DNA from: an uncultured bacterium
GTDB lineage: Bacteria; Acidobacteriota; Aminicenantia; Aminicenantales; CALLJL01
Direction of reading: 5' to 3'
Length of the DNA: 64,000 nt
Assembly: GCA_938092135.1 (NCBI GenBank)
Contig: CALLJL010000017.1
Location: forward strand, 62,259-126,258
A model generated the notes under the pieces. The model had not been told where the DNA came from. It did no database searches and saw only the letters and a list, made by a program, of their open reading frames with translations. Shown here piece after piece: positions 302 to 9,936 of this stretch; position 1 is the stretch's first letter; every line of letters begins with the position of its first letter. The translations under genes and the position numbers were made by a program.

Positions 302-838
302 TTACTTTTCTTTTTGTATAGCAAACCAGTAGATAAAAAGCTCCTTTTCTAATTCCTTATAATTTTGGAATTTCCGTTGGATTATTTTCCAGAAATTCTC
401 ATTATGTTTTTTTTCGAGGAGATGAGCTAATTCATGATATATGATGTATTTAATAAGAAAAATGGGCAATTTTTGTATTTTTGTATTTAAGGTAAGATTT
501 TTCTTCGAGCTTATGCTTGCCCATTTTGTTTTCATATTTCTCCAGAAGATTCCATTTATTCTTACGCCTAAATCATCGGATGCATCCTTAATAAGCTTAT
601 TCAAAATTTCATCAATTTCATCTTTCTTCCTTTGATACAATTCCTTTTGGTAAGATTCTTTTAGACATTCATTTATAAAGCCAAGTTTTTTCATTATCCA
701 ATTTTTATACTTTTCGACGATAACTTCAGGAGAGTAGCCAAAAGGAAGGATTAAAAGAAGCTTTCCCGTTGAAAATTCTAGCCTTGGAAATTTTATATTG
801 CGAAAGGAGACTTCGTAAGGTATTTCAGGAAGCTCCAT
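302..838 (-). CDS. DUF45/YgjP-like (M48-related) HExxH metal-dependent hydrolase
   Basis: Contains the motif YIIYHELAHLLEKKHNENFW, matching the DUF45 signature HELxHLxxxNHxxxFW. The gene overlaps the hsdR 3' end by 14 nt, an arrangement often seen downstream of hsdR. Confidence 0.7.
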   Translation of the reverse strand: MELPEIPYEVSFRNIKFPRLEFSTGKLLLILPFGYSPEVIVEKYKNWIMKKLGFINECLKESYQKELYQRKKDEIDEILNKLIKDASDDLGVRINGIFWRNMKTKWASISSKKNLTLNTKIQKLPIFLIKYIIYHELAHLLEKKHNENFWKIIQRKFQNYKELEKELFIYWFAIQKEK

Positions 839-3800
839 AGTTTTTTACGCAGTCCATTAATTTTTCATGTAAAATATCCATTTCTTTCAACGATAATCCA
901 TATGTTTTCTTAATCATTCTTACAAACTTTCTTATCTCTCGTTCTATACTCCTCCTTGCTGTCGTTTGAGCAAGCCATCCAGGAAACATTAATACTCTTA
1001 ATTTTTCCGAAAGCTCCTTTATTTTATCAACAAATTCACCTTTCTTTTCAAGATTTTTCTCGAGCGTCAGAAGGAGAGAATACTCAAGGTCTGAAAAGTT
1101 TAGTGTTTTTTGTCTATGAGAGAGAGAATAGATTTCTTCAAATATTTTTACTCCTTCCTCATATATCTTTTCATAATCCTTTATTTTCTCTTTCCACATT
1201 TTAACAAGTCTTTCGACCTTCTCAACTAGAGTTTCATAAATCGGATTCCTGTGCCTTTCGACAAGAATTAATCTGTTAAGAGTAAAAAGAATATTAGCTG
1301 ACTTCTCTTTTTTATCCTTAATTTTTTCTTCTAATTGTTTAAGATACTGTTCATCAAGAGTAATTGAAGGAAGAGAACTTGAAAGCGTCTCAATCTCAGT
1401 AGATTTGTGAATTGACTCTATTGTTGTCTTATAATATTTCTCAATTTCAGCTTCATAAATTGATTTTTGGATGACCGTTTTCATGTAATAGGTGTAAATA
1501 GCCGAGAGCCATTTAAAGGAATCTAAATACTCAATTTTAACTATGTCTGGACCAAGAAGCTCAAAGAGTTTATTGAGCTTTCTATATTTACCTACAAATT
1601 CTTTTTCAGTAATCGGAGAAGATGTAAGAATATCAATTGCGTCGACCAAAGTTTTCCTCTGATAATCCCTTTTTAAGTCTTTAAATATTTCCAGGCTTTC
1701 CTGAAGCAAGTTCACAAATTCTTGCTGAATATTTTCATAACTAAAAAGGACTCCTTCAATGTCTTCTTTGCTGTAAATTTCAATAGCTCTTTTAAATTCT
1801 TTCAATATTCCAACATAATCTATGACCAGACCAGCTTCTTTTAAATCCCTATAAGGTCTGTTTGTTCTGGCTATTGCCTGAAGCAGTCTATGCTCTTTAA
1901 GAGGCTTATCAAGATATAACACTTGAAGAATCGGAGCATCAAATCCTGTTAAAAGCATATCAGTCACTATCAATATCTTGGGATACTCCTCCTCTTTAAA
2001 TTTTCCAATAATTTCTTTTCTAATAGTTTCAATATCTTTCCCTGCGTATCTTTGTCTTGTCTCTGCCACTGCTTTTAAGAGGCTGGGCTCATCTCTTTCT
2101 CTATAGGTCATTACAACTTCACAATATTCCTTTGGAAGAAGTTTATTCAGCTCAAGGCGATAAAGTTCGCAGGCTTTTCTGCTTCCAGCTACAACCATGG
2201 CTTTGAATCTTCCAACAACATTCTCCTTAAAATGTTTAACTATATCCTCTGAAATAACCTTTATTCTATTAGGATTTTCAAGAAAAGCTTTAATAGAATT
2301 GATTTTTTTTCGCACAGATTCTTCTATTTCTTCCCGCATTTCTTCTGGGATTTCTTCAAACTCCGATTCCAAGAATGCTTCCAGTTGTTCTTTTTTCAGG
2401 TGAACTTCCCTTTCAAGTCTTGGTTGATAGACAATTTTCACGGTAAAGCCATCTTTTATAGATTCCGTTATAAAATATTTATCGAGATAAAGCTCTTCTG
2501 GTGGATAACTAAATTCGAGATAAGTGTCTCTTTCCCTTTTTGAGATGGGAGTTCCAGTGAAGGCAAAAAAGAAAGCATTTCTTAAAATTGACTTCATTTG
2601 AGCTGCAAGGGTTCCATATTGTGTCCTATGCGCTTCATCGACAAAGACAATTACATTATTTCTATTCATAATAGTTTCTTTTGTCCTCGACATCTTTTCT
2701 ATTTCTTTTCCCAAATGATTCAGCTCATTGTATCTAAACTTATGAATCAGAGTTATAAATGCTCCTCTCTTTCCTCTGTAATCATCAGATTTTAAAATCT
2801 CTTTTAATTCTTCAACCGAATTTATTTTTTCAGGTTTTATAATATCAAGGGCATTAAATTCTCCGTCCAGTTGCTCTTCAAGGTCAATCCTATCCACAAT
2901 AAAAAAAACTGTGGGGTTTTGAAGTTCCTTTAAATAATAAAGTTTGTGAAAGGCAAAAATCATTGTAAGAGTTTTCCCACTACCTTGCCAGTGCCATACT
3001 AGCCCTTTATTCTTTTCATCTTCACCAATAACATTTTTCTTCACCCTTTCAACTATTTTGCTTACGGTTCTATATTGCATATATCTTGTGACAACCTTTG
3101 TTGCCTCTCCTCGCTCAATCCTGAAAAAAAGAAAATTCCTAAATATATCCAGAAGTACTTCAGGCAGAAGAAAAGAAGAGAAAATAGAATAGGAAGGATG
3201 AATCTCTTTTCTCTTTATTTTCTCTTCATTATTCTCTGTTCTTAATTCGCCTTCTTCCATTTTCCACTCTTCGGCATTCACCTCATCTTTCCATGGAACA
3301 ACTGGAAAGTACTTGGCCACTGCTTCAACGGCAACACCAATTTGAGCATATTTGAACAATTCAGGAACTTTCTTCTCGTAATCCTTTATTTGTCTGTAAG
3401 CATTGAACCAGCTTTCAGCAACATTTGTCGGGTCTTTGCCTTCAATTATTACAAGAGGTATTCCATTTATATACAAAACTAAATCCGTTCTAATCCTTTC
3501 TCTCCCATCATAAATTGCTTGTCTTGTTATTATAAACTCGTTATTATTAATGTCATTAAAATCAAAGAGCTGAACATATTTTACTACTCTTTCTTTTTCA
3601 AACTTAACGGGGATTCCAAATTTATAAAAATTTAAAATTTTCCTGGCTCCCTCAATGCCAGTGCCGGCAAGGGTCAGTTCATTAATTGCCTTTTTTATCT
3701 CTTCATCACCGATGTTAGCTTCTTTGTTGATTCTTTCAAGGGCTCGCGATAGGTTTGGAATTAGAAGAGGCTCTTTGTAGCTTTCCCTTTCGAGGCTATC

Positions 3801-3878
3801 AGCTGGAATAAAACTCCATCCTTTCTCCTGGAGTAGGCTGGAAATGTAATCTTCAACGATTTTCTTTTCTTTAAACAT
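825..3878 (-). CDS. hsdR: Type I restriction enzyme R subunit (HsdR)
   Basis: 1017 aa. Has a Walker A motif WQGSGKTLTM, a DEAH box VDEAHRTQ and SF2 helicase motifs, and sits with the other Type I R-M genes. Confidence 0.9.
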   Translation of the reverse strand: MFKEKKIVEDYISSLLQEKGWSFIPADSLERESYKEPLLIPNLSRALERINKEANIGDEEIKKAINELTLAGTGIEGARKILNFYKFGIPVKFEKERVVKYVQLFDFNDINNNEFIITRQAIYDGRERIRTDLVLYINGIPLVIIEGKDPTNVAESWFNAYRQIKDYEKKVPELFKYAQIGVAVEAVAKYFPVVPWKDEVNAEEWKMEEGELRTENNEEKIKRKEIHPSYSIFSSFLLPEVLLDIFRNFLFFRIERGEATKVVTRYMQYRTVSKIVERVKKNVIGEDEKNKGLVWHWQGSGKTLTMIFAFHKLYYLKELQNPTVFFIVDRIDLEEQLDGEFNALDIIKPEKINSVEELKEILKSDDYRGKRGAFITLIHKFRYNELNHLGKEIEKMSRTKETIMNRNNVIVFVDEAHRTQYGTLAAQMKSILRNAFFFAFTGTPISKRERDTYLEFSYPPEELYLDKYFITESIKDGFTVKIVYQPRLEREVHLKKEQLEAFLESEFEEIPEEMREEIEESVRKKINSIKAFLENPNRIKVISEDIVKHFKENVVGRFKAMVVAGSRKACELYRLELNKLLPKEYCEVVMTYRERDEPSLLKAVAETRQRYAGKDIETIRKEIIGKFKEEEYPKILIVTDMLLTGFDAPILQVLYLDKPLKEHRLLQAIARTNRPYRDLKEAGLVIDYVGILKEFKRAIEIYSKEDIEGVLFSYENIQQEFVNLLQESLEIFKDLKRDYQRKTLVDAIDILTSSPITEKEFVGKYRKLNKLFELLGPDIVKIEYLDSFKWLSAIYTYYMKTVIQKSIYEAEIEKYYKTTIESIHKSTEIETLSSSLPSITLDEQYLKQLEEKIKDKKEKSANILFTLNRLILVERHRNPIYETLVEKVERLVKMWKEKIKDYEKIYEEGVKIFEEIYSLSHRQKTLNFSDLEYSLLLTLEKNLEKKGEFVDKIKELSEKLRVLMFPGWLAQTTARRSIEREIRKFVRMIKKTYGLSLKEMDILHEKLMDCVKNYGAS

Positions 3879-4018
3879 GATATTTTAGAGCCTGAAAAAT
3901 GAATTTCTCATCAATTCTAGTTTATTAATGACTTAATCTTTTCTACAAAAGGTTTCGCTTTCTCAAGCCATTCTTCAACTTGCTTCTTTTCGAACTCAAC
4001 GAATTCTAAATAACCTCC

Positions 4019-4372
4019 TCACTGTCTTGCTTCAAATAATCTATTATAAAATCGCCCCTCTTCTGTCCCTATAAGACCTTGTTTTATAATGTATCTATGG
4101 AAATAGGCCTTAACACCGGAATGTTTTTTAAATTTTAATCCTTTTTGGAGCAATAATGCACTCACAATATAAAAGCAGGCATAACAAATTCTGTTCACAG
4201 AGAAGGAAAGCCTGTTTGCTTTTAGCTCATCTTCTGCAGAGCAAAGGGATTCTAGGGATCTTTCTACCCAGTATTTAATAATTTCTTTCTTCTTTTTAGC
4301 ACTTTCCTTCACAAGGGAATTCCTTCCTTTTCTATAAAATAATGAATAGGAAGAGGACTTAGTTTTTCCCAC
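4019..4372 (-). CDS. HEPN-domain protein (toxin-like partner of the MNT gene)
   Basis: 117 aa. The C-terminal region (CYACFYIVSALLLQKGLKFKKHSGVKAYFHRY) resembles HEPN (PF05168). The annotated start overlaps the upstream MNT gene by 64 nt, so the true start may be a non-ATG codon further in. Confidence 0.65.
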   Translation of the reverse strand: MGKTKSSSYSLFYRKGRNSLVKESAKKKKEIIKYWVERSLESLCSAEDELKANRLSFSVNRICYACFYIVSALLLQKGLKFKKHSGVKAYFHRYIIKQGLIGTEEGRFYNRLFEARQ

Positions 4373-4677
4373 TCCTTTTTTGATAGAATAAGAGGACTTA
4401 TATTTGTGTCAAATTCAATATTTATATCAAACACTATGTCTAAAATTTGCTTCCTAATCTTTTCATTTATTTCGCCAGATAGAATTATTAAAATATCAAG
4501 ATCAGATTCTTCATCAAACTTACCTGTTACCTTTGATCCAAAAAGTTTGATCTCGGTTCCATGATATAATTTTTCAACCGCAGATTTAAGTTTATAAAGA
4601 GCTTCTTGTTCGAGCTTAGTGAAATACTTCTTAACTCTATTTCTTTGCTTCAAAATACTTTTTCTTTTTATTGTCAT
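4309..4677 (-). CDS. Minimal nucleotidyltransferase (MNT) domain protein
   Basis: Carries the motif LFGSKVTGKFDEESDLDILII, i.e. GS...DxD of PF01909. It is paired with the HEPN gene. Confidence 0.75.
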   Translation of the reverse strand: MTIKRKSILKQRNRVKKYFTKLEQEALYKLKSAVEKLYHGTEIKLFGSKVTGKFDEESDLDILIILSGEINEKIRKQILDIVFDINIEFDTNISPLILSKKEWEKLSPLPIHYFIEKEGIPL

Positions 4678-4706
4678 TGTTTTGATTTTCTTTCATCCAT
4701 TAGGCT

Positions 4707-5975
4707 TCATGTTCCACTTTTATAATCTAATTTTACCCTTCTCCTTCCTGTAAGCAAATCTTCCATTAATCCTTTCTTAACTCTTTCAAGCTTATCTTTC
4801 CTTTTTTCCAGCATCTCCAATCCCTTGTCAATAGTACTCAGGATTTCAGCAATTTTTTGTTGCTCTGGGAGAGGGGGGAGGGGGAGAGGAAACCTTTTGA
4901 GGTCATCTTTTCTAATAGCTTGAAAAGTTGAACCTCCAGAAATACTCTCAAGCTTTTTGCCTTTATACTTTAAATAATAAAATAAAAACATATAATTTGA
5001 TTTATCTGCCTTACTTCTTATTGCCGCTAAACCTCTGCCAATGCAAACCTTTGCAAGAGAAATATTAACATCTCCAACCGGAGCTCTTACCGAAATTAAA
5101 ACGTCGTTTTTTTCTGCTATTTTTATTGGTTTAGAACAGTAAATACTAGGTAATGGATAAATTTCGCCAAATTCCATCTTCCCCTGAAGAAAAGGCAGTC
5201 CTTCATTTGAAGTATTATAGGTGGAGGAAGGAGGCGACTGACCCATTATTACTTCAAAAATTTTATTGTCCCCCAACCTCACCACCTCCCACTCCTTCGG
5301 AATCTTTCCAATCTCTGTGTCTTTAAACTCCTTATGTCCTATGCCTTTGGTAAGTAGCTTCTCCATCAAGCCTTTCTTTAGCCTCTCGGTCTTCTCAATA
5401 GCCAGCTTTACCTTCTCAATTGCCAAATCCACTGTGCTCAGAATTTCAGCAATCTTTTTCTGTTTAGGAAGAGGAGGGAGGATGACCTTAAAATTTTCTA
5501 ACTGATCTTTTGATAATTCTTTAAACGTGCTTCCGCTGCTCAGGTTTTGTAATTCCTTCTTTTTATTTAAGAAATAATAACAATAGAATTTTGGAAAAAT
5601 ATTCTTTTCATCTTTTGGTATTAATCCTTTGCATCCTTGATTAAATGTGGCCCTTTCTTTAAGTATAGCAACATAACCTACTGGAGCCCTGGTTGATATT
5701 ATAATTGAATTTATTGGCATCAAAGTTAAGTTACTCTCTTTCATTGCCTTTTCGGTAATTTTTCTTTCACTTTCTTTTATTTCTATTTGCCTATTTAATT
5801 TGCTTAAATCAGATGGTGTAATCCAATTTATTGTTCCATTTTTCCAATAATCGCTATTTTTAGTTGATGGCGTCGTGCCAGTTTCAACTATAAATAAATC
5901 GTTCACTTTATGAACCTCCCAATCTTCCGGTATCTTCCCTATGTCCGTAACTTTAAAATTATGTTTTTTTTTCAC
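4707..5975 (-). CDS. hsdS: Type I restriction-modification specificity subunit (HsdS), two target-recognition domains (TRDs)
   Basis: 422 aa. Two TRDs are each followed by a conserved repeat ([18 protein letters not shown].. and [18 protein letters not shown]..), the typical HsdS architecture. Confidence 0.85.
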
Positions 5976-5987
5976 TTTATTAATCTT

Positions 5988-6977
5988 TTAGGGGAAAATT
6001 CTTAATTGTTCTTTTTCTAAAATTTCATAATTTTGCGTCATTTTATTCTTAAATTCCCATATATTCTCAAATTTCCATTCACCATTTCTGATGTTCGCTT
6101 TTGAGATTGTAAAGGCCTTGAAATGTTTTGAATATTTAAAATTTTTCCCTCTTTTAAATTTTTCTAACATTAATTTTACAGGATATGAAATTATAGCCTT
6201 TTTGTCCTCTACCCTATCACCTACACGTGGATTTTTTTGATAATAGAGTTTTGTTTCTTTGAAACAAGATTGAACCACACTTCCAAGCAGCATGTCTGCT
6301 AATTGAAGAATATTAGCGTGTTTATATTCTTCAGAACACCTAACATATTTTTTATGATCAGAATTTAAATGAACTAATTCTGCTGTATCTGGGATTTCTA
6401 CATAAGAACGAACTTTTTTTCTTAGATCATAAATTATTCTAAATTCATTTAATTTTCGATGACAAGGCTGACCGTCTGTTATTATCTTTAAAATTTTTAC
6501 CTTGTGTTTATTGTCATAAAGATAATGAAGCGTGCCCTTTAATAGCATTCTTAGTAGAGTTTCCCCAAATCTCAATTCTTTTTCCTTCCTATTTTCTCCC
6601 CCATAACTCGATATCAGATCCAATTTTGGTTCCTCATAAAATATCACTCCTAATTTGCAAAAAGTATTTTTTTGTTTAAGATATTCTACCGCTATTTGAA
6701 CTATATTTTTTTCAGCATTATTTTGCTTAGTCCACTTCTGTCCTGAAATCTCAGAAAAATGAAATTTGTGATTTGCACCGAAATTATTTCTTACTTTCTC
6801 AATGTCATCAAAAAGATCAGTTAAAGGCTTGAATGTTATTGGTGGCATGCTTAATAAATTTCCTTTTTCTCTGATGGTGATTTTAACAGGAACCAAAAAT
6901 AATACATGTCCTTTTAAATTCTGATATTTTGTTTCATCGTGATATACGATAACTTCACTATAGGTTTCTTTGTTCAT
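5988..6977 (-). CDS. DUF3800-like protein embedded in the R-M operon
   Basis: 329 aa. The N-terminal VIVYHDETKY resembles the YIDESG start of DUF3800, and the internal ILQLADMLLG resembles its QLAD motif. The assignment is tentative. Confidence 0.4.
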   Translation of the reverse strand: MNKETYSEVIVYHDETKYQNLKGHVLFLVPVKITIREKGNLLSMPPITFKPLTDLFDDIEKVRNNFGANHKFHFSEISGQKWTKQNNAEKNIVQIAVEYLKQKNTFCKLGVIFYEEPKLDLISSYGGENRKEKELRFGETLLRMLLKGTLHYLYDNKHKVKILKIITDGQPCHRKLNEFRIIYDLRKKVRSYVEIPDTAELVHLNSDHKKYVRCSEEYKHANILQLADMLLGSVVQSCFKETKLYYQKNPRVGDRVEDKKAIISYPVKLMLEKFKRGKNFKYSKHFKAFTISKANIRNGEWKFENIWEFKNKMTQNYEILEKEQLRIFP

Positions 6978-7002
6978 ATTTCTACTTCCTCTTCAGGCAC
7001 AT

Positions 7003-7296
7003 TCAAGTCTTTCTCCTTGCTCTCTTTATAATGTCGCCCTTAGAATTTATTACTCCTATTCCTGTTCCTTTAGTTACAGCCAGAGCAGTGCGAAGATTTT
7101 TATCATTGGTAGCTATATATCTTGCTTTTGAGGATCTTTTTACCTGATTTATGCCATGATATATCCCACTTTTTGTAGTCTCTACTTCGATAGCTCTATT
7201 GGGTGTCACAATATCAATCCCTCTGTGCTTTTTATACTGGACACCCAGCTTCTTCGCTATGTTTTCAGCAATTTGGTCATGTCTACTCTTGCTCAT
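7003..7296 (-). CDS. Small hypothetical protein, possibly PD-(D/E)xK-like (YraN/Hjc-like core)
   Basis: 97 aa. The stretch RGIDIVTPNRAIEVETTKSG resembles the GEIDLI...VEVK core of YraN-type nucleases. This is weak. Confidence 0.3.
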   Translation of the reverse strand: MSKSRHDQIAENIAKKLGVQYKKHRGIDIVTPNRAIEVETTKSGIYHGINQVKRSSKARYIATNDKNLRTALAVTKGTGIGVINSKGDIIKRARRKT

Positions 7297-7343
7297 GTGT
7301 TCATCATCACCTCCTTTCTATTTCCCAAAAATTAATTAGCATT

Positions 7344-7571
7344 TTATCTTTCTTCCAATTCTTCTAAATATTCCTCAATCTTTTTGTCCACATCTTCAAG
7401 TTCCTTTTCAATTAACTTAATTTCTTCCCACTCTCTCTCCACATCAATTTCTTCCCTTTCCTCCTCTGGAAATACATAAAGAGTTACATTAAGGTTGTAA
7501 TCGTTTTCTCTTATCTTTTCAGCGTCAACAATTTTGGAGAAGCCCTCTATTTCTTTAAATTCGTGATACAC
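7344..7571 (-). pseudogene. hsdM: C-terminal tail of HsdM, in frame with the upstream hsdM ORF across a TAG codon
   Basis: Translates YHEFKEIEGFSKIVDAEKIRENDYNLNVTLYV, the conserved HsdM C-terminus (ENDYNLNxxRYV). Exactly 66 nt (22 sense codons) separate it from the TAG at 7638-7640. Confidence 0.7.
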
Positions 7572-7637
7572 CTTTGAAATCTTATTTATGTGTTCATCTG
7601 CGAGCCTATTTAATTTTCTAACTTCTGGATGTTGCTC

Positions 7638-9092
7638 CTATTCTTGGCTTGCATTTATAAATAGAATCTTTCCTTTCCTTCCTTCTGGTTTGCTCTTTCT
7701 GAGAATTAAAATTGCACCAGGAGCCCCAGTATTGTAGAAAAGCTTTTCCGGAAGCAAAATAACAGCTTCTATCAAATCTTTATTAAGAATTCCTGCTCTT
7801 ATTGCTCTTTCTCTTCCACCTCTAAAAAGACATCCATTGTCGATAACAACTCCTACCCGGCCATTCTTCTCATCTGCGGAAGATAGCATGTGCTGAATCC
7901 AGGCCCAATCCGCTGACTGATTAGGAGGAAATCCATATTTAAATCTTTCCTTCCAAAATTCTCCTTTTTTCAGAGTTTCCTCTCCATATCCATCCTGATT
8001 CCAGGGAGGATTGGCTATAACAATATCAAATTCCATTATTCGGTCAGCAGATTTAAACTTAGGATAAAACAAAGTATCCCCAAGAGAAAGGTGGACATTT
8101 CTTATATCATGTATGAAAAAATTCATTTCTGCTAAAGCAAGGGTCATATGATTTGCCTCCTGCCCGTAGAGGAAAAGTTTGTTGGCTTCATCCTTTCCAT
8201 GCTTCTCCTCTACATGTTTGTAAGCACCAATGAGCATACCGCCAGAACCCATTGCTAGGTCATAAACTTTCTCATTGGGTTTCGGGTCAAGAATTTTAAC
8301 AAGAAGCTTTATATCTTCCCGAGGAGTATAAACCTCGCCCTCTTTGGCCTTCTGAGGAGCAAAATATCTCAAAATCCATTCGTAGGCATCGCCAAGAAGG
8401 TCAGCAGAGACATGATGAAGGGGTTTAGCGCTAAAGAGCTCCACAAGCTGGCGCAATATTTCTGCATTTTCTCGGCTCACTGCGAATTGAATAAAGTCCA
8501 CATTTTCAAATACATCTTTAAGGTCAGGATTTCTTTCAGCAAGAATTTTCATAGCCTTAGAGAAATTCTCTGGTAACCTTGCAGGGTCTCTTCTTATATT
8601 TTCCCAGAGAAGTTCTGGTTCAATATCAAAATCATGATATAAAGATTTGCTGGCTTCTTCTCGCGCCTCTTCCTCAGATAGTCCATCAGAAATTGCTTCG
8701 TTGTATGCGGATTCAAACTCAATCTCCCATTTGTCACTTATTCTTTTGTAGAAAAGAAGAAAGAGAATGAAAGTATAATCAACCCTGGTTCTTATAAGAT
8801 CGGCAGCTCTTTTCAAAAGAGCTTCAAGCTCGCCTCTTGTAAGTTCACTTTCACCAATGGCAAGGAATTGCGATATTATTTTTTCACTCCTTTCAAGGGT
8901 ATATATCCTTTTTCTCGCATCCTCAGGGTCAAATTCAGCTCTGAGCCACCCTTTCTTTCTTAATTCAGAAAGAATTACATTCATCTGTTCTTCGCTGTCT
9001 TCAAAATCTCTTTTGAGGACATTAAAGGCATCTTCAAATCTAAAAGGAGAATCTTCATATTCTGTCCATAATGCCATGTACCTTTTCTCCAA
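7638..9092 (-). CDS. hsdM: Type I R-M DNA methyltransferase subunit (HsdM), truncated by an in-frame TAG
   Basis: 484 aa. Has the N6-adenine methyltransferase motifs DLAMGSGGML (motif I) and VIANPPW (motif IV). It ends ...ILFINASQE and then hits TAG. Confidence 0.85.
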   Translation of the reverse strand: MEKRYMALWTEYEDSPFRFEDAFNVLKRDFEDSEEQMNVILSELRKKGWLRAEFDPEDARKRIYTLERSEKIISQFLAIGESELTRGELEALLKRAADLIRTRVDYTFILFLLFYKRISDKWEIEFESAYNEAISDGLSEEEAREEASKSLYHDFDIEPELLWENIRRDPARLPENFSKAMKILAERNPDLKDVFENVDFIQFAVSRENAEILRQLVELFSAKPLHHVSADLLGDAYEWILRYFAPQKAKEGEVYTPREDIKLLVKILDPKPNEKVYDLAMGSGGMLIGAYKHVEEKHGKDEANKLFLYGQEANHMTLALAEMNFFIHDIRNVHLSLGDTLFYPKFKSADRIMEFDIVIANPPWNQDGYGEETLKKGEFWKERFKYGFPPNQSADWAWIQHMLSSADEKNGRVGVVIDNGCLFRGGRERAIRAGILNKDLIEAVILLPEKLFYNTGAPGAILILRKSKPEGRKGKILFINASQE

Positions 9093-9936
9093 CCATTTAG
9101 GAAGATATAAGTTTTTAGATTGTCTATTATTAAATAAGTTTTTTTATTCATACTTATTCAATGAATAGTATTAAGCTATTTGTCATGCCCAAGACGATAA
9201 TTTTTTTAATTATTATTAAGTTAGATTCCGAGGTAAAAATGTCAGAAATCTATCCCTCAGGCAGGCCGGAGGCTTAATTGCTACTTTCAGGCTTCTTATC
9301 TCATCTGCCCATAGAGATTTATTACATCTTTGTCTGTTCTTAGACAAAAACGGCAGTTTGAATATCTGCCCATAGGCTTTCTTGCGAATCCTTTTAGGCT
9401 TAAAGACTTGCCGAGAGTAAAATTTATGCTTGCTGAGGCATTAGAGAGCTACAACGTCACAAACTAACAATAAAGGTCTTTTTTTGTTCTAAAAAGGCAA
9501 TGGCATATTTTGTTTGCCAATTCGCCATCATAAATCCTCTATAGGTAACTGCTTCGACCGAAACTCCTTCACGCTCTCATTTTAGCGCTTCACCATAGCC
9601 AAGACCTGTGAAGCTACGCCTCTTTTTTCCCTAACGCCCTCCTAACTACTCTATTCTCCTAGGAAAAGCACCTTAATCAAATACTCCTGAACCAAACTAA
9701 TCAGCGCCACCTCAAAGTGATTCCTTTCCATTTCTTTATGCCAACGTAAAGTAACCTCTTTTATTTCGAGATTTTCTTCTTAAAAAGAGAGTTTTCGATG
9801 GCTCCCTTCCCATGATCAAATTGCAAACTATTTTGTCCACGGCAACTTTAAAGCATTTTGTATACCAGCTTTTTAAATAGCAAATAATTATTGCCACAGG
9901 CATCTGATTTAATTATTATAGGCATGTTTTTTCTCC

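Follow-up and report, generated by a model that had tools for sequence, protein, structure and literature searches.

Several methylation-based defence systems are known to carry accessory effectors inside their operons. PrrC is encoded within a Type IC restriction-modification (R-M) locus (PMC3874165, PMC12707154), nuclease effectors that serve as a backup are embedded in bacteriophage exclusion (BREX)-type loci as set out in the effector section of a BREX survey (PMC12839542), and control tied to HsdMS is known both for PrrC (PMC3874165, PMC12707154) and for RonA (bioRxiv 10.1101/2023.04.06.535777). Embedded second-line effectors such as PrrC, Ronin and the BREX backup nucleases show that immunity can be layered, countering phage anti-restriction. 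The locus analysed here occupies positions 302–9092 of a 64,000-nucleotide stretch of an uncultured bacterium (assembly GCA_938092135.1, contig CALLJL010000017.1, positions 62,259 to 126,258), referred to below as the window, and consists of a Type I R-M operon with accessory genes set between its core genes. R-M operons with accessory effectors inserted in this way are already familiar; what is new here is the cargo, which belongs to uncharacterised families. We consider it probable that the locus represents a mobile, horizontally acquired Type I operon with two slots for interchangeable accessory cassettes, that the cargo likely comprises second-line effectors, and that the copy in the window is decaying.

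Genes were assigned with the Pfam, PADLOC, NCBIfam and PHROGs profile libraries, and RNAs with Rfam. Eight co-directional open reading frames (ORFs), all confirmed in position, fill 302–9092 on the minus strand, in the order hsdM, a gene for a 97-residue protein, a gene for a 329-residue protein, hsdS, a minimal nucleotidyltransferase (MNT)-HEPN pair, hsdR and a YgjP-like (DUF45) gene; the composite Type I architecture and gene order put forward in the original prediction were thus borne out by ORFs and domains. Gene-to-gene spacing across the island ranges from -14 to +47 nt and no terminator-like site was found between its genes in a promoter/terminator scan, which is uninformative in AT-rich DNA; this spacing and the absence of such a site are consistent with a single operon. 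The G+C content of the island is 0.28–0.36, as against 0.40–0.46 in the rest of the window, and the closest named matches of a flanking housekeeping gene are from Candidatus Aminicenantes (57–70% identity).

In the model we favour, an uncultivated Aminicenantes-like bacterium would have gained the operon horizontally. The core would comprise hsdM, hsdS, hsdR and a translationally coupled gene for a YgjP-like metallopeptidase; slot 1, between hsdM and hsdS, would hold genes for the 97-residue protein, of PD-(D/E)xK fold, and the 329-residue protein, a divergent DUF3800 protein of RNase H fold; and slot 2, between hsdS and hsdR, would hold the MNT-HEPN toxin-antitoxin pair. An intact copy would methylate the host genome through M2S and cut unmethylated DNA through R2M2S, and the cargo would most likely supply nuclease effectors or toxins as a second line, either supplementing restriction or serving as its backup. 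Such a role is suggested by the folds, the conserved catalytic residues and the repeated embedding of these genes in R-M-like operons. The copy in the window would be in decay, with one nonsense codon each in hsdM and the HEPN gene and with the DUF3800-like, 97-residue, hsdS, hsdR, MNT and ygjP-like genes intact.

HsdM was identified as a gamma-class N6-adenine methyltransferase (PF12161, HsdM_N, 5e-15; PF02384, N6_Mtase, 1e-90) with the motifs NPPW and GSGG. The ORF at 7344–7571, which had been listed as a separate 'hsdM-tail' gene, turned out to lie in the same frame as hsdM (7638–9092), so that hsdM is one reading frame (7344–9092, minus strand) split by a single in-frame TAG at 7638–7640; the N6_Mtase profile is split accordingly, with positions 2–249 matched before the TAG and 271–310 in the tail. 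The TAG aligns to a Tyr in all five homologs compared (codon TAT in all three inspected), and with it the last ~98 residues are lost. Translation of hsdM probably begins at an ATG at 9077 or a TTG at 9092, and residues 1–85 (8838–9092) form an N-terminal extension ahead of HsdM_N that has no Pfam match. HsdS (4707–5975, minus strand) is intact and contains two target-recognition domains (Methylase_S twice, 1.2e-76; PADLOC Specificity_I). HsdR (825–3878, minus strand; 1017 residues), also intact, combines a PD-(D/E)xK nuclease with a superfamily 2 motor (HSDR_N, SWI2_SNF2, ResIII, T1R_D3; PADLOC REase_I, 4.6e-115), and D...ExK, GSGKT and DEAH motifs are visible in its translation. Of the three Type I subunit genes, then, hsdS and hsdR are intact and hsdM is broken. 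In Type I systems M2S methylates, R2M2S cuts unmethylated DNA and M2S is required for methylation and restriction alike; the C-terminal region of HsdM is required for assembly with HsdS. Because the in-frame TAG removes the C-terminal part of HsdM, and M2S is needed for both activities, the R-M system in the window is probably inactive, as judged from the reading frames.

In type VII retrons and Cas12a2 loci, DUF3800 has been described as an effector domain related to RNase H (PMC7736814, PMC10910872), with characteristic DE and QxxD motifs (PMC7736814), and a structured RNA motif nearby is frequent in the family, though not obligatory (PMC5737381). The 329-residue protein of slot 1 (5988–6977, minus strand) has an RNase H/RNase H2-like fold with an intact predicted acidic active site, and among viral structures it is matched best by a DUF3800 protein. 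Among 44 aligned sequences of its family, D14 and E15 of the N-terminal DE motif are at least 90% conserved, Q225 and D228 of the C-terminal QxxD motif are invariant, and PF12686 is matched by 36 of the sequences (E<=0.1; lowest value 1.4e-5), with no other family recurring; on these grounds the earlier 'DUF3800-like' label is justified. A sequence search returned 108 matches, with members of about 330 residues and a precomputed PF12686 match in four, and a profile search returned 206 representatives among 1.84 billion. When a bridge to canonical DUF3800 was sought through distant representatives, one of ten gave a weak PF12686 match, which argues that the family is a separate clade. The 329-residue protein is accordingly assigned, by its predicted fold and motifs, to a divergent DUF3800 clade.

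This clade has its two motifs (DE and QxxD) and its RNase H2-like fold in common with the type VII retron effectors, the Cas12a2-linked TPR-DUF3800 proteins and the RNA-linked DUF3800-I to XI genes (PMC7736814, PMC10910872), whereas it differs from them in being small and divergent, in carrying a C-terminal extension of ~90 residues, in falling below the Pfam threshold and in being embedded in R-M, BREX-related and DISARM-like (defence island system associated with restriction-modification) operons instead. The window protein had no match in PADLOC, PHROGs or NCBIfam and no tblastn match in plasmid or phage collections; Rfam detected no DUF3800-associated RNA motif in the window, nor in any of 20 related loci, and neither a reverse transcriptase, nor Cas12, nor a known DUF3800 RNA motif was found near the gene. 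Transposon-like mobility of the gene is unlikely, as the flanking gaps of 12–25 nt leave no room for terminal repeats. We know of no activity for DUF3800, and the R-M-embedded clade, with its simple genetics, is a suitable place to study the role of the domain.

The second protein of slot 1, 's97' (7003–7296, minus strand), belongs to an unannotated conserved family with a minimal PD-(D/E)xK fold. The restriction-endonuclease-like alpha-beta-beta-beta-alpha-beta core is present in its 97 residues. The family comprises 133 homologs of nearly equal length (52–76% identity), in which H6, D7, D28, E37, E39, Q51, K57 and G-I-G79-81 are invariant. The pattern D28...E37-V-E39 would give a putative active site of ExE rather than ExK type, with the invariant K57 nearby; BamHI likewise uses ExE. 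No match was obtained in any of the four profile libraries and none by tblastn in the plasmid collection. Neither this mini-restriction endonuclease nor the DUF3800-type RNase-H fold is among the effector classes named in the relevant section of the BREX survey (PMC12839542), and the locus adds two unannotated nuclease-fold cargo families.

Relatives of the 97-residue protein are found in Type I operons (L100, L103; loci are numbered with the prefix L) or adjoining methyltransferases in most of the distinct contexts examined, and one homolog lies in an island with a Fic-domain gene (L108/L109). In a Parcubacteria locus (L101:6067–9397, AP024682.1), a LexA_DNA_bind gene and an S24-peptidase::N6-methyltransferase fusion gene are divergent from the homolog, which is followed by genes for a 224-residue unknown protein and a Hypoth_Ymh protein. 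In another (L105:7385–13363; also L106 and L107), the homolog is part of a conserved cluster adjoining an MvaI/BcnI-type R-M system, in the order LexA-like/S24 peptidase, 97-residue protein, 103-residue protein, 1035-residue DEAD/ResIII helicase and 546-residue unknown protein; this cluster may be a candidate for an uncharacterised defence system.

Gene neighbourhoods were compared, with seed-based gene annotation, for 98 loci encoding DUF3800-like relatives and several more for the 97-residue protein, and homologs of both embedded genes were found to co-localise with defence genes elsewhere, as the original prediction requires. Relatives of the DUF3800-like protein with at least 50% identity mostly belong to the same Type I lineage, where they lie directly upstream of hsdS (L001, L020–L026, L029, L030, L032), and a few (L027, L028, L031, L033–L035) lie in a PglZ/DUF1156-methylase context. 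In the closest relatives the 97-residue and DUF3800-like genes are both kept between hsdM and hsdS, the former being immediately upstream of the latter in six Type I loci and frequently overlapping it by 4 nt. More distant relatives adjoin Type I single-polypeptide (Type ISP) enzymes or Type III mod/res genes, lie between PglZ and a DUF1156 methylase (the BREX-related type described in the effector section of PMC12839542), are flanked by an MmeI/Eco57I-like methylase on one side and a DEAD-MZB helicase on the other (DISARM-like), or are found beside other N6/N4 methylases. Of the non-redundant DUF3800-like loci with 4 kb or more of flanking sequence, 21 of 39 have a methyltransferase gene no further than 6 kb away; where the flank reaches 8 kb or more, the figure is 14 of 23. 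Given the usual density of methyltransferase genes in prokaryotic genomes, both raw proportions look strongly enriched. The hosts include Acidobacteriota, Chloroflexota, Bacteroidota, Planctomycetota, Zixibacteria, WOR-3, Lentisphaeria and one Archaeoglobaceae archaeon, so that this RNase-H-like clade spans bacterial phyla and one archaeon as well as five kinds of methylation-based systems. That its members turn up repeatedly inside systems of several methylation-based classes is not mentioned in the literature on R-M effectors and DUF3800 cited here. Three of the loci have tRNA genes within a few kb of the DUF3800-like gene (L049:3174–3244, L058:6432–6505 and L082:597–671), a placement consistent with sites of island insertion.

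The contents of the two slots vary within the R-M lineage of the window. Elsewhere in this lineage slot 1 contains genes for Fic, a Schlafen/AlbA_2-HATPase protein, ORF6N, AbiJ_NTD4 or an SDH-type protease, and slot 2 contains MNT-HEPN or nothing. In two loci (L110:7019–12255 and L111) a full-length, 601-residue HsdM, 89% identical to that of the window, is encoded at a different chromosomal site, beside rpsM-rpoA-rplQ of another genome, and is followed downstream by entirely different cargo (SDH_protease, ORF6N, AbiJ_NTD4). The varied content of slot 1, together with a nearly identical hsdM that carries other cargo elsewhere, points to a hot spot of cassette turnover. Variable effectors between the core genes of methylation systems, among them HEPN, Schlafen, PD-(D/E)xK, Fic and Abi proteins, are likewise a feature of the auxiliary effectors of BREX and BREX-related loci, as far as the effector section of the survey describes them, and of Ronin, in which RonA is found with HsdMS (PMC12839542; bioRxiv 10.1101/2023.04.06.535777), and the restriction-linked ORFs (rlo) of Campylobacter Type I loci show a similar embedding (Miller 2005, as cited in PMC3632139).

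From this range of contexts a further possibility emerges, which we put forward tentatively: the DUF3800-like family, possibly with the 97-residue mini-restriction endonuclease, could constitute an unrecognised class of guardian or backup nucleases that plugs into Type I, Type ISP, Type III, BREX-related and DISARM-like systems. If so, the principle of PrrC and Ronin would extend to an RNase-H-type enzyme, one whose substrates might be RNA-DNA hybrids or R-loops.

Several observations weigh against the reading of the locus as a mobile operon with second-line effector cassettes. Every function invoked in it is inferred. The window 329-residue protein itself scores 12.1 bits against PF12686 (E 0.31), below the gathering threshold of 21. 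Outside the closest clade the 97-residue and DUF3800-like genes are not found together, and they are therefore not obligate partners. The proportions of DUF3800-like loci with a methyltransferase gene nearby are raw ones, with no computed background rate beside them. About 40% of the adequately flanked DUF3800-like loci have no R-M gene in the seed-based annotation, and some of the genes lie among housekeeping genes (e.g. L014). Suppression of the stop codons keeps some probability, the sequence covered being 64 kb. Finally, the left end of the island either coincides with the start of the window or falls outside it.

In a rival account the cargo would not contribute to phage defence, the toxin-antitoxin pair and stand-alone nucleases being selfish or addictive passengers that use R-M operons as co-transferred safe landing sites and stabilise the island. 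Rapid change of cargo between near-identical hsdM genes, the occurrence of DUF3800-like genes as single insertions among housekeeping genes (as in L014), the tRNA genes near some loci and the low G+C of the island all fit such an account. However, the cargo is found repeatedly inside, and not merely beside, operons of five different methylation-based systems, no flanking repeats are present and the intergenic gaps are 12–47 nt, and the predicted catalytic residues are conserved across phyla. We therefore regard passenger status as unlikely and retain second-line effector cassettes as the preferred interpretation of the cargo.

The pair in slot 2 was originally compared with PrrC, which occupies the same position in prr loci. 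The first gene (4309–4677, minus strand) encodes a 122-residue MNT, a putative antitoxin (NTP_transf_2, 3e-9; Polbeta; PADLOC candidate PDC-S09, 2e-16), in which a GS...DxD motif is visible. The second (3917–4312, minus strand) encodes a putative toxin with a HEPN domain of the UPF0332 type, recognised by Pfam and by its homologs; its GTG start at 4312 overlaps the MNT stop as GTGA (4 nt), and its frame is cut by a TGA at 4019–4021, after which it resumes in frame to 3917. With read-through (131 residues), positions 2–116 of the 117 in PF05168 are matched (64.6 bits vs 43.9; 1.2e-17). The TGA falls inside the R-x3-DY motif, where it replaces Arg/Thr, and the Asp is changed to Gly as well, so that the window reads R-Q-stop-G-G-Y, with GGY in place of GDY; the corresponding motifs are EARQRGDY in L026 and EHRRTGDY in L034, and two relatives of known structure, 9xbd and 2hsb, have RNRSDY and REESDY, respectively. 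With a stop inside the motif and the Asp lost, the HEPN toxin of the window is probably inactive on the evidence of its coding sequence.

Free-standing HEPN-MNT pairs are encoded by overlapping genes, and the HEPN protein is neutralised by its own MNT (PMC3632139). The window pair resembles these modules (COG2250/COG1895 HEPN with COG1708/1669 MNT) in having the MNT gene upstream, a stop/start overlap, the GS...DxD motif and, on read-through, a full-length PF05168 domain (PMC3632139), and differs in being embedded in a Type I operon, in the TGA that interrupts HEPN and in the change of GDY to GGY. Assignment to the Type VII HepT/MntA (DUF86) toxin-antitoxin systems was rejected, the NCBIfam MntA model giving 22.9 bits against a cut-off of 60 and the HEPN domain being PF05168, not DUF86.

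The comparison with PrrC would imply a HEPN RNase held latent in the Type I complex and set free when a phage anti-restriction protein blocks that complex. The positional part of this comparison stands: as in EcoprrI/prr, an accessory gene with a domain of the HEPN superfamily lies between hsdS and hsdR (here at 3917–4677), which is the slot of prrC (PMC3874165, PMC12707154), and the arrangement recurs in L026 and L103; the idea of an R-M 'guardian' is common to the two as well. An MNT-HEPN pair also lies directly upstream of a DUF3800-like gene in a DUF1156-methylase locus (L034/L035), and HEPN-MNT modules appear as backup effectors of BREX-type loci in the effector section of the survey (PMC12839542). 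The mechanistic part does not carry over. PrrC combines an N-terminal ABC-ATPase-like domain with a C-terminal HEPN anticodon nuclease, whereas the window encodes a separate 122-residue MNT and a minimal 131-residue PF05168 HEPN, with no ATPase of the PrrC type; sequestration by HsdMS belongs to PrrC, and nothing ties the window HEPN, whose gene is truncated within its conserved motif, to HsdMS. The module has its own neutraliser in MNT, with the 4-nt overlap typical of free-standing toxin-antitoxin pairs (PMC3632139), and most sister operons do without it (L001, L022, L029, L030, L032). A PrrC-like guardian role is accordingly improbable, and we class the pair, by its domains and gene overlap, as a putative self-contained toxin-antitoxin module rather than a PrrC-like one, carried as slot 2 cargo of the cassette-bearing operon.

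Both in-frame stops are real. An alternative genetic code was ruled out, since TAA, TGA and TAG end 25, 24 and 5 other ORFs of the window as ordinary terminators. An assembly artefact was likewise ruled out, since a separate, independent assembly from Logan (ERR9287632; L112), which matches the window at 99.984% identity across 12.7 kb, carries the same hsdM TAG, and since the truncated HEPN product, of 97 residues, is on record from Logan, as is the hsdM tail product. That the stops are nonetheless harmless (through a suppressor tRNA, recoding, error or minority alleles) and the island fully functional, which would count against a decaying copy, is very improbable: the stops are exactly in frame, the sequence after them is conserved and apparently undegraded and the remaining island genes are all intact, but TGA and TAG terminate other window genes normally, no tRNA or SECIS-like (selenocysteine insertion sequence) RNA was found in the window, the independent assembly and the Logan products agree with the window, and HEPN lacks its conserved Asp besides. 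With hsdM and HEPN broken by nonsense codons, the window copy as it stands would probably show no phenotype if cloned and is of limited use; the intact orthologs (L001, L022, L026, L103) are better suited.

The last gene of the operon (302–838, minus strand) encodes a YgjP-like (DUF45) protein with an HExxH zinc metallopeptidase fold (PF01863, 96.9 bits vs a cut-off of 26, 2.1e-27; HELAH motif), and its start overlaps the hsdR stop by 14 nt. The same order of hsdR and YgjP-like gene, overlapping or within ~10 nt, occurs in L001, L022, L029 and L030 and also on annotated Aeromonas and Runella plasmids, in agreement with the recurrence that had been claimed for DUF45 proteins next to hsdR. We infer that the YgjP-like protein modulates HsdR; a search for literature linking DUF45, YgjP or COG1451 to Type I R-M returned nothing usable. 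On a plasmid of Aeromonas veronii (L114; NZ_CP136591.1, 48136–62417), the hsdS-hsdR slot contains a gene for a 438-residue hypothetical protein and a SLATT-domain gene, a YgjP/SprT-like gene overlaps the hsdR stop, and a DUF86/nucleotidyltransferase pair lies just downstream.

Beyond the genes, positions 1–301 of the window, downstream of the ygjP-like gene, have a G+C of 0.29 and stops in all six frames. At the other end, the 844 bp upstream of hsdM (9093–9936) are without a convincing ORF (none of at least 60 residues, one of 55) and gave no Rfam match. The G+C content rises beyond this stretch, which may contain the operon promoter and is a candidate for the right-hand border of the island.

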